Notes under the pieces: generated by a model
What the model was told of the DNA's origin: nothing
What the model saw: the letters and a program-made list of their open reading frames with translations, nothing else
Databases searched by the model: none
Shown: piece by piece, positions 44,141 through 50,891 of the stretch
Numbering within the stretch: the first letter of the stretch is position 1
Layout of the letters: each line of letters starts with the position of its first letter
Position numbers and translations under genes: made by a program
Assembly (NCBI GenBank): GCA_050952625.1
Contig: JBMNLH010000004.1
Coordinates: forward strand, 96,001 to 160,000
DNA length: 64,000 bases
Reading direction: 5' to 3'
From: Bacillota bacterium
Lineage (GTDB): Bacteria; Bacillota; Ch66; Ch109

Positions 44141-45922
44141 TTATTTAATCAAAAGATCGTTCAGGGCAATTTTTTCCCTTAGTTGCCCCATTTCTAATAA
44201 GGCTTCTTGTACCTCGTTCAACTCCGACAAATTCGGTTTGAGGTTAGTATAAATGATTCTTTGCTTATCTTCTAACAAACAGTTACGGGCAATATCTTCC
44301 GCAACATTGAAATACTTGGCCGCAATACTAGCTGCCCATAACCGATCATTCTCAATGATGCTGCCGGCAGTGATGAGTTCGTTTCTTAACTCTCGCACAA
44401 TATCCGGGTGCCGATTATAAAAACCTTGATTGACCACCATGGCACAACACAAATGCTCCGGCCAGATCTCTCGTGAGGAAACCAGGATCCGGCCGACGCC
44501 AGCTCGTTCCACCTGAGAAATAAAGGGCTCTGAACAAAAGAACCCGTCAATCTCCTCATTTTCTAGATTCAAAATCATATTAGGCGAGGGGACCGAAACG
44601 GTTCGGTAGGTTAGCCCCGAATTTTTCATCCACTTGTGCAACAGCAAACCTTCAGTGCCCAGTTTACTGGGAATAGCAATCAACAGAGGACTCTGATTTT
44701 CCCGCAAAAGAACCTGCCGGTCAGTAAAGTTTGGCTCGACCACCAAACAACCGCCATTACGGTGTCCGAAGCAAACCAGCTTAAGCAGCACACCCTGCTG
44801 GCGATAATTCAACACCGCTGGAAGCATCATAAAACCGGCGTCAACCTGACCCTCCACCACAGCCTGGTTAAGCTCGCGCCAGTAGATATAAGGTGTAAGC
44901 TCAACTTTTAAGCGGGGATTTTTGCAAAAAAGCAATTCCTGCGCCACCGGCAGGGTTAGGTGGTCCATACTTGGTATGTAGCCTATGCGGATGGAAACGG
45001 TTTTTAATTGTTTAAAATCAATTGGATTATTAAGGTGCGCCGGGGAAACCACAAAACGACAGGCACTATCCCCTTTGGCCACACAATCGGTTTCTTCACA
45101 ATTCACTTCCGCCTGGCACAAACGAGAAACTAAGCCGGCCAAAAAGCCTCGGGTAAACTCATCCATTGCCTGGAGGGAACTGGCCTCCGTTCCCTGAAGC
45201 AACTCGTTCCCCTTAAAGTAAACCTCTTGATTTTCTTCATCTAGTTTTTCTAATTCAATTTTACCTAGTCCGCCAGCGGCAAATTGTTCGAGACAGTCCT
45301 GAAGATCCCCGGTTAACCCCCGGGCAAAACGCCGGCCGGTTTTCTCCACAGAACCTTCCTGCAACCGCTCCATCTGCTCAGTAAAAATCCGCAGCAGTCT
45401 CAGAACCTGGGACTTGGTAAACAGTTGCGCTCGCGGTTTAGAGGTGGGAAACAATTCGCAGGCACATTTAACCGCTGGATTAGTCTCAATTATGGTGTAA
45501 TCGAATTCTTGACCTAAACACTCTCGAATAATCCCGACGAAAGTGAGGACGCGGATGCAAATCGCCCGTTTTTTAGCTCGCAATTGACAGGTAATCGCAT
45601 AGGGGCAGTTAGGACCCACGACCATGCGAATTCGCCCGGCTGGCAACCGGGAGAAAGAGACATTAGCCTCCTCCAGCAAACCCTCTTTTTCTAAAAGGTC
45701 CCGGTACCAGCGCATTATATCCAATGGTTTTCGAATCTCCCCACTGTTGGCTTCCAACCGGTTGATTAATTGATTGGCCGCCATCTCAGAAGCCATGGCC
45801 AGTACAGAGTGGGGTTCTCCTAAATCGTCACCAATACATCCCAGAGCGTTTACCCAGTAGTTCATTCTAGCATTTTCGGATTTTAGCTGATGCAGCAACC
45901 TTTTCGTTAAGTCCTCAGTCAC
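44141..45922 (-). CDS. Cytoplasmic multi-sensor fusion: MetOD1-like domain + V4R + NrtA/CmpA/NasS-type (NMT1-like) binding domain
   Basis: NCPY...IC...C N-terminal domain; V4R FTRGFLAG...EETDCVAKGDSACRF; IRIGYIP..DH, GHRNG, EPF, IWPEHLCC; no signal peptide or lipobox. Confidence 0.75.
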   Translation of the reverse strand: MTEDLTKRLLHQLKSENARMNYWVNALGCIGDDLGEPHSVLAMASEMAANQLINRLEANSGEIRKPLDIMRWYRDLLEKEGLLEEANVSFSRLPAGRIRMVVGPNCPYAITCQLRAKKRAICIRVLTFVGIIRECLGQEFDYTIIETNPAVKCACELFPTSKPRAQLFTKSQVLRLLRIFTEQMERLQEGSVEKTGRRFARGLTGDLQDCLEQFAAGGLGKIELEKLDEENQEVYFKGNELLQGTEASSLQAMDEFTRGFLAGLVSRLCQAEVNCEETDCVAKGDSACRFVVSPAHLNNPIDFKQLKTVSIRIGYIPSMDHLTLPVAQELLFCKNPRLKVELTPYIYWRELNQAVVEGQVDAGFMMLPAVLNYRQQGVLLKLVCFGHRNGGCLVVEPNFTDRQVLLRENQSPLLIAIPSKLGTEGLLLHKWMKNSGLTYRTVSVPSPNMILNLENEEIDGFFCSEPFISQVERAGVGRILVSSREIWPEHLCCAMVVNQGFYNRHPDIVRELRNELITAGSIIENDRLWAASIAAKYFNVAEDIARNCLLEDKQRIIYTNLKPNLSELNEVQEALLEMGQLREKIALNDLLIK

Positions 45923-45933
45923 AGGCTCACTTC

Positions 45934-46653
45934 CTATCTAAAGTAGAAATCCTTATCCACAACTAAGCCTACCCCCCGTTTAATACAACACGGGAACGGA
46001 CGAGGATCATAGCCGGCGGTCCGCAACTTATGCAGCCGTAAATTACGTTGCGGAACTCCTCCCCTTTCATCCGGGAAGAATAGGTCAAGACAAACATCAT
46101 AAGCATTAGTTAAGGCGTACATCCCCGCTTCTTCCAGGGTCCCCTTTAGATACATATCCATAATTACCACATCGGGTTCGCGCAGGAGCCGATTCTTATC
46201 CTGAACCAAGGCTAAAAACTCTTTGGTTGAATAAACAGCCGATATAGAGGTTAAGGAATCTAGAACGACCCGGCAAGGCTTTTTCATTTGCCTGACGACC
46301 CGGGTAATAACATACAGAAATTCCTGCGCATCGCCTCGGTCTTTGATACAGACCACGCGTGGATCGGAAGATTCATAGGTATCTATAAAGATTAGCCGGC
46401 CCTCTCTCTCGTAGGGATCAGAGACAAAACCAAAAAAATTTAAATCTTCCCGCACCCGAGCGGCTGGCTCGTCGCAGGCGACATACACCGCCGATTCCCC
46501 TTGCCTGAGGCCTTGTACCATAAACTGGAATCCAAGCGTGCTCTTGCCCGCTCCGGACTCCCCTCGTACCTGCCAGATAGTGCCAAATGGAATCTTACCC
46601 CGAACAATTCCCTCAAGAGGAGAAAAACAAACCCCTTGATTGAGTTCACCCAT
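45934..46653 (-). CDS. Single-domain KaiC/RAD55-like RecA-family ATPase
   Basis: GESGAGKST, AVYVACDE, RVVLDSLT, RNLRLHKLR. Confidence 0.85.
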   Translation of the reverse strand: MGELNQGVCFSPLEGIVRGKIPFGTIWQVRGESGAGKSTLGFQFMVQGLRQGESAVYVACDEPAARVREDLNFFGFVSDPYEREGRLIFIDTYESSDPRVVCIKDRGDAQEFLYVITRVVRQMKKPCRVVLDSLTSISAVYSTKEFLALVQDKNRLLREPDVVIMDMYLKGTLEEAGMYALTNAYDVCLDLFFPDERGGVPQRNLRLHKLRTAGYDPRPFPCCIKRGVGLVVDKDFYFR

Positions 46654-46681
46654 AAGAATCTACCCCTTTTCCTCTTTTCCC

Positions 46682-48434: not shown

Positions 48435-48469
48435 ATTCGACACAAGCCATAAAACTCCTTCTTTCGACA
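48435..48469 (-). promoter_or_regulatory. sigmaH-like promoter with two Spo0A-box (TGTCGAA) matches
   Basis: AGGA-N17-GAAT (48459 to 48435); TGTCGAA at 48436-48442 and 48463-48469 on the minus strand. Confidence 0.55.
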
Positions 48470-48545
48470 AACTCTGACACTAAAAAAGTTTGGCTTATTA
48501 TTATCATCGCTTAGCCTTGGTCAAAACATAAGGCTAGAGTTAATT

Positions 48546-50891
48546 TCATTTATCATAGCTGTTTGTGATATGAGGGTCCCCGGTGGTTTTGGAGTTCGTG
48601 GCTTGCTGTATCTGCTGTACCTTATTTCTTAGCTGCTGAATCAGTCGGTTTAGACCCTCAAGTCTTCCCTGCTTAATAGCTTGATTAATCTCAGCCCCTA
48701 TTTGGGAAATATCTTTTAAACCATATAAACCAGCTGAACCTTTAATATCGTGACTAACACTGAGTACGGTTTCTAGGTCACCCCCGGTCAGGGCTTGATC
48801 TATTTGCTTAACCATATCGTCCAATGAAGTTAAAAACTCCGGTAAAAGTGCTTGAATCACTCGATCCGATCCGGCAACTTTAGCCTCCTTTGGCTGCTGC
48901 CCGGCTTGAACTCGCCTCAAGGCCTCCAATAATTGCCCTCGGGTAAAGGGCTTGGCCAAGTAATCAGTACACCCGGCAGCCAGACACTTTTCCGCATCCC
49001 CTTTCATGGCGTGAGCAGTCAAGGCAATAATCGGCAGGTTTTGCCAGCGGGATGATTGGCGAATTCTTTTAGTCGTCTCGTAACCATCCAAAATGGGCAT
49101 CTGCATATCCATTAGCAACAAATCAAACTCTTCCTGCTCCAGGATCTGCAGACACTGCTGGCCATTCTCGGCTACTCGGACCGAATGCCCCTCAGCCTGC
49201 AGTATGTAAGTTATTAGACGCCGGTTAGCCTCGTTATCCTCAGTTACCAGGATGGAACAGAAAGCTGACCCGCCGGCCGAAGCAGCCGGCACCGGTCGGG
49301 AACGTGGCTGGTTCCGCTTGACTACTTTAGACAATGGCTGCTCTAGCGGTACACAGAAATGAAAAGTGGAGCCCCGTCCTTCTTCACTATCAACCCAGAT
49401 GCGTCCACCCATCAATTCAATTAGTTGTCGACAAATGGCTAGACCAAGGCCGGTCCCACCGTACTTGCGTGCCGGTGATCCATCCACCTGAGTAAAGGCT
49501 TGAAAAATATTATCCCGAGCATGATGAGGAATACCGATCCCAGTATCTCTAACCGAAATGTGTAATGGGAATTGAGAAGAAGGCAGCCTTTTGTTGCCTC
49601 GACTGGCCCGAACCTCAATCTCCCCTCGTTCGGTAAATTTAACGGCATTGCCCAGTAGATTAGTCAGCACCTGACTAATTCGCCCAACATCACCGCTAAG
49701 GATCGGTGGAACTTGCGAACTGATAAAGGTTTTGAGTACGATAGTGGTATCTTCCAGGTGCGGTTGAATGGCTGCGGTACACTCATTTATCAGGGTGCTA
49801 ACTTCAAAATTGGCATTTTGTAGTTCAATTCGATCCGCTTCAATTTTGGATAGATCCAGGATATTATCAACTAAATGAGAAAGTTGTTGGCCACAACGTT
49901 GAATTGTCGTTACAAACTCCATTAAACGGGGGGATAGATTTTCCCGAGACAGGAGTTCGGCAAATCCCAGGATCCCTCCCAGCGGTGTCCGAATCTCGTG
50001 ACTCATATTGGCTAGAAACTCAGTTTTGGCCCGATTAGCAGCCTCCGCCTGGCGGTGAGATTCAATTAAATGGGCAATATCTGCGACTATGCCAACGGCT
50101 CCTTTGATGTCGCCATTTTCATCCCGGATCGAGGTAACTGACAACCAAACAGGCCGTGCGGTTTTGGCTTTATTCATGGTTTCTACTTGACCGCGCCAAG
50201 TTCCCCCTGCCTTAATCGTCGTCAAAATTTCCCGCAACCGAGCTAACTCGGTTAAGGGAAACATTAAGGAAATCTGCTGGCCGACCGCCTCTTCTTGGCT
50301 CCAACCGTATAGTTTTTCAGCTCCCCTATTCCAGGACCGAATACGCCCATCCAGATCAAAAACAATGATGCAATCGTTCACGTTGGCCAGTAGATTTGCC
50401 TGAAAGCGTATTTCCGCTTCCGCCCGGCGTTGGTCAGAAACATCTGTATAAATACCAAATGTCCCCTGAACCCGGCCTTGATTATCGATAAAAGGAGCCG
50501 CACCTACTATCACCGGCACTTTTCGCCCGGAACGAGTGACCAAACAAGTTTCATAGGTACTCCGTTCCCCGTGAAGTTGGCGCCAAAATTTGTCGAGCGA
50601 GACAGAAACTTGAGACCTGTCAATAATATCTAAATAAGATCGGCCAAGGATTTCTTCTTCTGAATACTCAAGCATTCGACACAAGGCCTGGTTAACCTGG
50701 GTTATTTTCATTAAGGGATCCAGGCAAACTAATCCTTCCGTCATGGTCTCAATCAGAGTCCGATATCGGCTTTCGGAGGCAGTCAACTGGGCCACGCTGT
50801 CCTTAAGGAAGGTGGATAACTCGGACCTATCAAGCTCATCTAAGGCATCCACCATCTTCAAAAACTTTTCGACGTGATTAGTCTGACTCAT
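48546..50891 (-). CDS. Soluble hybrid histidine kinase PAS-PAS-HisKA-HATPase-REC-HPt
   Basis: Two PAS domains ([21 protein letters not shown]), [46 protein letters not shown]; no TM helix. Confidence 0.93.

Follow-up and report, generated by a model that had tools for sequence, protein, structure and literature searches.

The system described here lies in a stretch of 64,000 nucleotides (nt) from a bacterium of the phylum Bacillota (assembly GCA_050952625.1, contig JBMNLH010000004.1, positions 96,001 to 160,000), which we refer to as the window. It is a cluster of five open reading frames (ORFs), all on the minus strand and spanning 44141-50891 (coordinates unchanged from the first-pass annotation), that encode, in the direction of transcription, a soluble hybrid histidine kinase, a small winged-helix protein of 111 amino acids (aa), a double-domain KaiC (KaiC2), a single-domain KaiC (KaiC1), and a cytoplasmic sensor of three domains (Table 1). 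The genome is 2.9 Mb in size and 95.9% complete. The ORF list and the Pfam domain calls, all above the curated cut-offs, agree with the five co-oriented genes and the domains that had been read from the sequence at first, and the tight coupling noted for the last four genes holds as well: the small gene and KaiC2 overlap by 4 nt, and the gaps from KaiC2 to KaiC1 and from KaiC1 to the sensor are 28 and 11 nt. The kinase gene is separated from the small gene by 143 nt. No hydrophobic 19-mer above 1.4 on the Kyte-Doolittle scale occurs in any of the five proteins, so none of them looks membrane-bound. On balance, gene context and predicted folds incline us to read the locus as a signalling cassette that is non-circadian, driven by ATP and organised around a KaiC assembly of three domains.

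Table 1. Features of the KaiC locus (positions in the window; aa, amino acids)
Feature	Position	Strand	Basis and remarks
Single TGTCGAA heptamer, uncertain	50933..50939	-	48 nt before the kinase gene; preceded by a weak sigma-70-like site (50970-50942)
Soluble hybrid histidine kinase, 781 aa	48546..50891	-	ORF and Pfam: PAS-PAS-HisKA-HATPase_c-REC-Hpt
Intergenic region, kinase/core	48403..48545	-	Sigma-70-like site, two TGTCGAA heptamers, sigma-H-like match
Winged-helix protein, 111 aa	48067..48402	-	ORF; predicted fold; proposed adaptor
Double-domain KaiC (KaiC2), 462 aa	46682..48070	-	Two PF06745 domains
Single-domain KaiC (KaiC1), 239 aa	45934..46653	-	One PF06745 domain
Three-domain cytoplasmic sensor, 593 aa	44141..45922	-	H-NOX/Bet3-like ~13-161, V4R ~165-300, NMT1_2/SsuA-type 306-526 and beyond
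Terminator-like hairpin and T-run	44060..44078	-	63 nt past the sensor stop codon; consensus match only

The same five-gene order is present in two other Syntrophomonadaceae genomes, one of the same genus (G001, 94% identity in the sensor) and one of another genus (G004, 60%), and kinase orthologs occupy the same position at loci L021 and L022, the latter from genus G004. In a metagenome-assembled genome of Desulfoscipio geothermicus (32% sensor identity) the four-gene core of small protein, KaiC2, KaiC1, and sensor is kept, its genes abutting, overlapping or 5 nt apart; the place of the kinase is taken there by a GAF-HD-GYP gene, itself preceded by an RsbU_N-GAF-GGDEF gene. Ten loci outside the family of the window's genome have the order KaiC2, KaiC1, sensor, small protein, and plain PAS kinase, with overlapping genes, a sensor of about 335 aa (N-terminal domain plus V4R, without the binding-protein domain) and a small protein of about 100-115 aa. 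In these ten, phmmer retrieved KaiC2, the sensor, and the kinase eight times each and the small protein nine times, the misses being due to contig ends, broken frames or scores below threshold; all five genes were found in six loci, always in the order KaiC2-KaiC1-sensor-small-kinase. Compared with these plain-kinase loci, the window holds the same five families in a permuted order (kinase-small-KaiC2-KaiC1-sensor); its sensor has gained an NMT1_2 domain, and its kinase has gained a second PAS, a REC, and an Hpt domain and stands 143 nt away from the core. Relatives that match the sensor over its full length are very few, with 5 clusters in a set of 5.8 billion proteins. Among 401 sampled genomes of the phylum, 13 gave a match to the KaiC1 profile at E<=1e-20, namely the three orthologs, one genome of the same taxonomic order (G006), and nine of family f31.

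Since the gene set recurs in Syntrophomonadaceae, in Desulfoscipio, and in ten other Bacillota genomes, its grouping is not a matter of chance, and the co-occurrence on which the first-pass annotation had staked its proposal of a five-gene module does exist. What stands of that module is a co-conserved signalling set around KaiC ATPases; its conserved core has four genes and the kinase is a replaceable output, because Desulfoscipio has GGDEF and HD-GYP genes in its place and a promoter-like site separates it from the core. The label 'archaeal-style', given to the module at first, is not needed: the family is bacterial, and its closest described precedent is the KaiC-like/kinase module of Pseudomonas. 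The cassette is conserved yet uncharacterised in bacteria. Two further observations concern individual loci. At the Desulfoscipio locus (L025 1821-4576) the genes 5' of the cassette encode a STAS protein, an RsbT-like kinase, a PP2C-like phosphatase, and the RsbU_N-GAF-GGDEF protein (all names but GGDEF read from the sequence), a set that looks like a partner-switching, stressosome-like system, apparently wired to the synthesis of cyclic di-GMP (c-di-GMP). KaiC2 is broken into two ORFs in two members of the plain-kinase clade (L039 5982-7370, 168+288 aa; L042 5040-6204, 262+144 aa), which could be a frameshift, an assembly error or decay.

Both ATPases score well above the PF06745 cut-off of 26.6 bits (KaiC2 319.3 bits with two domains; KaiC1 93.9 bits). 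Because all three domains keep Walker A and Walker B intact (8/8 KaiC2 and 12/12 KaiC1 orthologs), they are predicted to have retained ATP binding, and probably hydrolysis. KaiC1, in which the D-E pair is intact as well, is the best-conserved member of the cassette. The first-pass annotation had set KaiC against RadA/Sms or FlaH as the family of these ATPases; the NCBIfam KaiC model gives KaiC2 278 bits, far more than RadA (72), FlaH (81) or ArlH (69).

An exhaustive HMMER search with KaiC1 retrieved 159 representatives at E<=1e-10, with 21 at E<=1e-30, and many of the best matches turned out to be the C-terminal (third) domain of proteins of 690-730 aa, three of which (P0007, P0010, and P0011) carry three PF06745 domains each. 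KaiC2 shares 41% identity along its entire length with domains 1-2 of P0007 (E 3e-112). Because such fusions of about 700 aa exist in relatives, KaiC2 plus KaiC1 amount to the split form of a three-domain KaiC, and the two probably act as one assembly. A predicted complex of KaiC1 with sensor residues 1-300 scored 0.01 against a mark of 0.32, was made without controls, and weighs neither way.

A metagenome scan with the cassette proteins yielded 78 loci, 11 of which encode a three-domain KaiC of 700-880 aa with a strong KaiC1-type third domain. The gene directly 3' of it encodes GAF-V4R (L049, L071), PAS-V4R (L066), PASx3-V4R (L063), a kinase or hybrid kinase (L057, L096, L097), or GAF-PAS-GGDEF-EAL (L093); a protein of this last kind is encoded about 1.5 kb downstream in L080. 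From the gene orders a rule emerges, by which a V4R-containing protein with V4R at or near its C-terminus tends to be encoded after the last KaiC domain. Apparent sensor-kinase fusions in L063 and L064 were discarded, the similarity being confined to PAS. A full-text literature search returned no description of a three-domain KaiC, which does not show that the architecture is unpublished; in the passages it returned, 'KaiC domains' refers to the two-domain clock protein.

Other features of the fused genes were recorded on the way. ORFs of 135-190 aa without a Pfam family lie immediately 5' of fused three-domain KaiC genes and are tightly coupled to them (L050 7530-7994, L053 920-1345, L080 7364-7786, L093 1205-1630, L057 2824-3276, L066 3012-3419, and L063 6964-7536, the last doubtful because of an overlapping ORF on the other strand). 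A clear likeness is seen among four of the seven; as relatives of the winged-helix protein they were ruled out (hhalign probability 0.07%). Tandem KaiC genes of different lengths are found in L070 (2105-7991; 643, 555, and 571 aa) and L057 (1172-5414; 551 and 712 aa). The KaiC1-type domain weakly matches the model of the MEDS sensory domain: KaiC1 in the window (45934-46653, minus strand) gives E 0.0076, below cut-off, and the third domain of P0007 (residues 514-653) reaches 30.9 bits where 29.8 are required, which hints that MEDS and the KaiC1-type branch may be related.

The sensor carries V4R (PF02830; 40.1 bits, cut-off 31) and NMT1_2 (PF13379; 115.1 bits), and its N-terminal 170 residues receive no Pfam assignment. 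MetOD1 (PF18546), first suggested for the N-terminal domain, finds its sole match (E 0.089, 13.3 vs 23.8 bits) on residues 223-292 of the V4R domain, and the suggestion was given up. In a structural model of residues 1-300 (pLDDT 75) two domains of one superfamily are seen: residues 165-300 match V4R proteins, with MJ1460 (VIA, over 172-296) at Z 13.3 and MopR, PoxR, and DmpR at Z 12.4-12.9, while residues 13-161 match TRAPPC3 and H-NOX at Z 10.4-10.6. By its predicted fold the N-terminal domain belongs to the H-NOX/Bet3/V4R superfamily. The V4R region also gives profile matches to DmpR (3e-6), MopR (2e-5), and MJ1460 (7.5e-4). Six cysteines, three per domain, are invariant in the seven sensor sequences, and an E-x2-C-x7-C motif aligns with MopR and DmpR; in MopR the residues of the cysteine motif presumably bind zinc. 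The column of the upstream MopR cysteine holds Cys in four of the seven sequences and Asp254 in the sensor of the window. For the C-terminal domain, of NitT/TauT type, the solved proteins that match are an uncharacterised binding protein at E 4e-19 and, at E about 1e-8, NrtC and CmpC with their cytoplasmic regulatory domains, and the latter match provides a precedent for an intracellular ligand sensor with the fold of a binding protein. In our case the NMT1_2 domain follows two cytoplasmic domains, and the sensor has no hydrophobic N-terminus.

HisKA, HATPase_c, Response_reg, and Hpt of the kinase all exceed their Pfam cut-offs, and by motif the His-Asp-His relay is complete: SHEIRTPL at 297, MDMQMP at 594, and SHDIKGSAG at 713, in which we take His298 of the H-box, Asp595 of the receiver, and His714 of the HPt domain to be the phospho-sites.

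The 111-aa protein, called wHTH-like (winged helix-turn-helix) in the first-pass annotation, is indeed a winged helix by its predicted fold (pLDDT 70, topology H-H-b-H-H-b-b-H), and Foldseek places MarR/ArsR/CodY wHTH domains on top (E about 1e-3, TM 0.5-0.6). It has no Pfam or NCBIfam family at E<=0.01, its best HTH matches (E 0.055-0.14) being below the cut-offs, and a word-indexed search returned only the query itself. A motif FFxxNPxxxDTxxGLAR is conserved. The isoelectric point (pI) is 4.27 here, 4.3-4.8 in the lineage of the window, and 5.9-10.1 in the plain-kinase clade. In locus L049 the domain is fused to GAF-GGDEF (residues 13-87, 31% identity, E 2e-13) in a gene situated 5' of the three-domain KaiC, and in all three gene arrangements it is adjacent to the gene of an output enzyme. 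Here too a rule emerges: the small domain is encoded beside the output-enzyme gene, and in L049 fused to it. Because of the acidic pI in the window's lineage and the GGDEF fusion, the protein is more likely an adaptor than a DNA binder.

The strongest rival explanation takes the opposite view of this protein: the four-gene core would be self-contained, the winged-helix protein would be a DNA-binding transcription factor, and the kinase would be a mere conserved neighbour with PAS inputs of its own. The gap of 143 nt with its promoter-like site and the Desulfoscipio core without a kinase fit such a view, as do the fold matches to MarR, ArsR, and CodY DNA-binding domains, the nearest Atlas clusters, automatically named MarR-like, and the neutral to basic small proteins of the plain-kinase clade. 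We nevertheless think it unlikely. The kinase is present in 3/3 Syntrophomonadaceae loci and in 8/10 loci of the other gene order, where the genes overlap; the small protein lies beside the output-enzyme gene in every arrangement and is part of a GAF-GGDEF protein in L049; it is strongly acidic in this lineage; and no HTH family of Pfam matches it above threshold.

The profiles of KaiA (PF07688) and KaiB (PF07689), which detected the Synechococcus control genome, gave 0 matches in the genome of the window. PF06745 matches at E below 1e-20 in this genome are limited to the three domains at our locus, the weaker ones being RadA-, RecA- and DnaB-sized genes. REC matches number 28 in the genome, and the nearest besides that of the kinase itself is about 26 kb away. 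The claim that neither kaiA, kaiB nor a nearby stand-alone response regulator is present thus holds genome-wide for the two clock genes, with no kaiB elsewhere that would make this a known Kai system, and on the same grounds the non-circadian character proposed at first is upheld. Over its full length KaiC2 can be aligned with KaiC chains of solved structure (E 1e-50 to 1e-61), and it stays below both NCBIfam cut-offs for circadian KaiC equivalogs (NF006799, 278.2 vs 408 bits; TIGR02655, 209.1 vs 546.25 bits). The alignment ends at its own residues 453-458, equivalent to residues 473-487 of KaiC chains of 512-526 aa, with 4-9 residues remaining; because KaiC2 stops there, it is without the C-terminal A-loop/tail region, which we take to lie beyond CII. 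The phospho-pair S431/T432 aligns with E410-S411 of KaiC2 (alignment to PDB 8zn6). At the first position Glu or Gln is found in 8/8 orthologs, at the second Ser in six and Ala in two. The CI pair, a Glu-Glu pair (FEE) of presumably catalytic role in solved KaiC chains, is E-Q (TFEQ) in 8/8 orthologs, while the CII pair is E-E in 6/8, G-E in Desulfoscipio, and D-E in L047. A switch by the phosphorylation state of KaiC, as suggested in the first-pass annotation, is doubtful, the canonical pair of phospho-sites not being conserved across orthologs, and the locus looks unlike a Kai clock.

A Kai-type timer or hourglass, in which KaiC2 would run an autophosphorylation cycle as in purple-bacterial KaiBC and the winged-helix protein or KaiC1 would replace KaiB, is in our opinion quite improbable. 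It could draw on the end-to-end alignment with cyanobacterial KaiC, on the E-E pair of CII and the Ser at the T432 equivalent (each in 6/8 orthologs), and on the phosphorylation of Pseudomonas KaiC homologs in stationary phase that is reported in a preprint (bioRxiv 10.1101/2022.01.26.477890). It is opposed by the lack of KaiA and KaiB matches in a genome of such completeness, by Glu or Gln at every S431 equivalent and Ala at two T432 equivalents, by the end of KaiC2 at about residues 475-487 of a 519-aa KaiC, before A-loop and tail, by scores below both equivalog cut-offs (278 vs 408 and 209 vs 546), and by the E-Q pair of CI in all eight orthologs. Finally, a role of the ATPases in DNA repair or recombination (RadA/Sms-like), in archaellum or pilus assembly (FlaH/ArlH-like) or in anti-phage defence is hardly conceivable. 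They are P-loop domains of the RecA superfamily, with weak RadA, FlaH, and ArlH matches and a PADLOC 'mad8' match (E 1.6e-12). Yet none of the RadA, FlaH, and ArlH scores comes near its curated cut-off or reaches what the KaiC models give; the PADLOC match covers just 59 residues of the P-loop region around Walker A, nothing meaningful in the way of defence is matched by the remaining four proteins, and the locus fits no known defence family; RadA-, RecA- and DnaB-sized genes exist separately in the genome; and sensor or signalling neighbours occur in every locus.

The region between kinase and core resembles a promoter region in its own right. A sigma-70-like site (10/12) at 48524-48497 is followed by two perfect TGTCGAA heptamers at 48463-48469 and 48436-48442, i.e. 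67 and 40 nt before the small gene. In genus G004 (L022) the pair is kept at -73/-46 with the same 27-bp spacing and diverged flanks. The heptamer 5' of the kinase gene is not kept upstream of the L022 kinase. With the sigma-H consensus as pattern (RNAGGAWWW-N11-RNNGAATWW), a match with two mismatches is found at 48433-48461; at the orthologous place in L022 a match without mismatches includes the second box and is the only one with at most one mismatch in 16 kb, where 0.5 would be expected. As a signal of the window alone the sigma-H pattern was ruled out (14 sites found vs 14.4 expected). The sole match without mismatches in the window lies elsewhere, at 37441-37469 on the minus strand. TGTCGAA is the core of the 0A box, and in passages of a study on Clostridioides difficile functional boxes are placed at -67 to -78 (PMC3485338). 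Taken together, these observations are evidence, though no proof, that the core is expressed as the cells pass into stationary phase or enter sporulation. Spo0A is encoded in the genome of the window, and orphan kinases are thought, according to passages of the same study, to phosphorylate Spo0A directly in clostridia (PMC3485338); Spo0A is a candidate end-point of the relay.

From these elements a working model of the cassette can be drawn. KaiC2 (CI-CII) and KaiC1 would form one unit, most likely of stacked rings like other KaiC proteins. As input, the sensor would read a small molecule, or a metal or redox state by way of its two conserved cysteine triads, and would alter nucleotide turnover or conformation of the KaiC proteins. 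The 111-aa winged-helix protein would act as the adaptor that links the KaiC assembly to the output enzyme. This output would be the soluble PAS-PAS hybrid kinase in the window, passing phosphate through its His-Asp-His relay to a distant receiver, and a plain PAS kinase or c-di-GMP enzymes in relatives. The state of the switch would be set more likely by ATPase activity and conformation than by a canonical Ser/Thr phospho-cycle. The core's promoter region, in which a pair of Spo0A-box heptamers is conserved and a sigma-H-like motif is present, may time expression to the transition to stationary phase or to sporulation entry, and Spo0A would be the candidate final receiver.

Several points weigh against this model and have to be set beside it. 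Its support consists of gene context and folds, from which binding, ATPase activity, and phosphotransfer are all inferred, and the structural models of the 111-aa protein and of the sensor (pLDDT 70 and 75) are of moderate confidence. The fold of the small protein is that of MarR/ArsR DNA binders, and its pI in the plain-kinase clade is 5.9-10.1, so that it may yet bind DNA. The kinase lies 143 nt from the core across a promoter-like site and is missing at the Desulfoscipio locus, so that its functional link to the core in this lineage is inferred from recurrence only. The Ser retained at the T432 equivalent in 6/8 orthologs makes some autophosphorylation possible. As regards regulation, TGTCGAA occurs 7 times in the window against 6.5 expected, and the argument rests on position and conservation; sigma-H-like sites in the window are no commoner than chance; and the Desulfoscipio core has no box near its start and only one at -230. 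In favour of the model, contigs from the RNA libraries of four metatranscriptome runs (four studies, of digesters and bioreactors), 95-100% alike, cover stretches of each of the five genes, at low depth; none of them spans the junction of two genes with >=31 nt on each side, DNA carry-over is possible, and bins without cover carry no meaning.

The cassette may also be given a more specific role, which we offer as a distinctly unlikely elaboration. The three-tier KaiC2/KaiC1 ring stack would be a checkpoint at the entry into stationary phase or sporulation: the signal of the sensor would set its ATPase state, the stack would gate, through the adaptor, a kinase that combines in a single polypeptide the equivalent of the KinA-Spo0F-Spo0B relay and hands phosphate to Spo0A, and Spo0A would feed back through the two 0A boxes; in relatives, c-di-GMP synthesis and breakdown would take the place of the relay.

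KaiC homologs without KaiA and KaiB are widespread and their function is largely unknown; the cassette makes this question concrete and testable, since it offers a defined set of partners (sensor, adaptor, and exchangeable output) as well as natural fusions (the three-domain KaiC and the adaptor-GGDEF protein) that predict protein contacts. If the three KaiC domains stack, the known architectures of this ATPase family are extended, and if the proposed model is true, a His-Asp relay and c-di-GMP signalling are alternative outputs that the same KaiC engine can power. The possible tie to Spo0A, if true, would matter for the entry into stationary phase or sporulation of syntrophic anaerobes in digesters.

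A few features of the surroundings remain to be mentioned. Between the kinase gene and the next gene lies a tandem array of six 190-bp units (51420-52560, 98% alike); the unit recurs as a dispersed repeat on several contigs of the genome, where it has 65 matches, some of them grouped in small arrays, and a partial inverted copy is found at 43823-43874. The 52-nt inverted match that brackets the cluster was considered as the boundary of a mobile element and ruled out, as it belongs to this genome-wide repeat. Just 5' of the promoter region of the kinase, an ORF of 73 aa (51147-51368, minus strand) with a ribosome-binding site of the GGAGG type is followed by a hairpin; it matches no Pfam family. 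Rfam had no match in the window from 42000 to 54000.

Among known systems the Pseudomonas module comes closest. In the passages of the preprint that deal with it, KaiB-less KaiC homologs are nearly always found beside a histidine or hybrid kinase and bind its PAS domain, and a modulation of phosphotransfer is proposed (bioRxiv 10.1101/2022.01.26.477890). As far as those passages go, the two systems share a KaiB-less KaiC homolog beside a hybrid kinase, which in our case has two N-terminal PAS domains. They differ in the third KaiC domain on a separate protein, the V4R-type sensor, and the winged-helix protein of our cassette, in its anaerobic Bacillota host, and in the c-di-GMP enzymes that are a possible output in its relatives. 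Groups I and III of Pseudomonas, as described there, have an adjacent single-domain response regulator, unlike the window, where the nearest other REC domain is about 26 kb away. With the cyanobacterial KaiABC system and its SasA/CikA-RpaA output the cassette has in common a double KaiC with intact Walker motifs, a histidine kinase as output, and, in concept, a small partner resembling an adaptor; unlike it, the cassette has no KaiA or KaiB, no A-loop/tail, no conserved phospho-pair, and an E-Q pair in CI, and it adds a further KaiC domain and partners with winged-helix and V4R folds. The sensor shares its V4R fold with the phenol sensors MopR, PoxR, and DmpR, and the intracellular binding-protein fold with NrtC and CmpC, but it is a stand-alone protein beside KaiC and neither part of a sigma-54 activator nor attached to an ABC ATPase. 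In archaea, KaiC proteins reportedly associate with V4R-like and HTH-type partners (a finding of Makarova, Galperin and Koonin in mBio, 2017), and passages citing such work present KaiC-like ATPases of archaea as proposed hubs of signal transduction (PMC5847659). Insofar as these passages describe them, the archaeal hubs resemble our locus in that ATPases of the KaiC family stand among sensor and output domains; the difference is that the latter is a bacterial, defined multi-gene cassette with a three-domain KaiC and with His-Asp or c-di-GMP outputs. To these known systems the cassette brings genuine additions: a three-domain KaiC in split form, a sensor of the V4R family with a gained binding-protein domain, a putative winged-helix adaptor, an exchangeable output that in the window is a full His-Asp-His relay, and conserved boxes of the Spo0A type.

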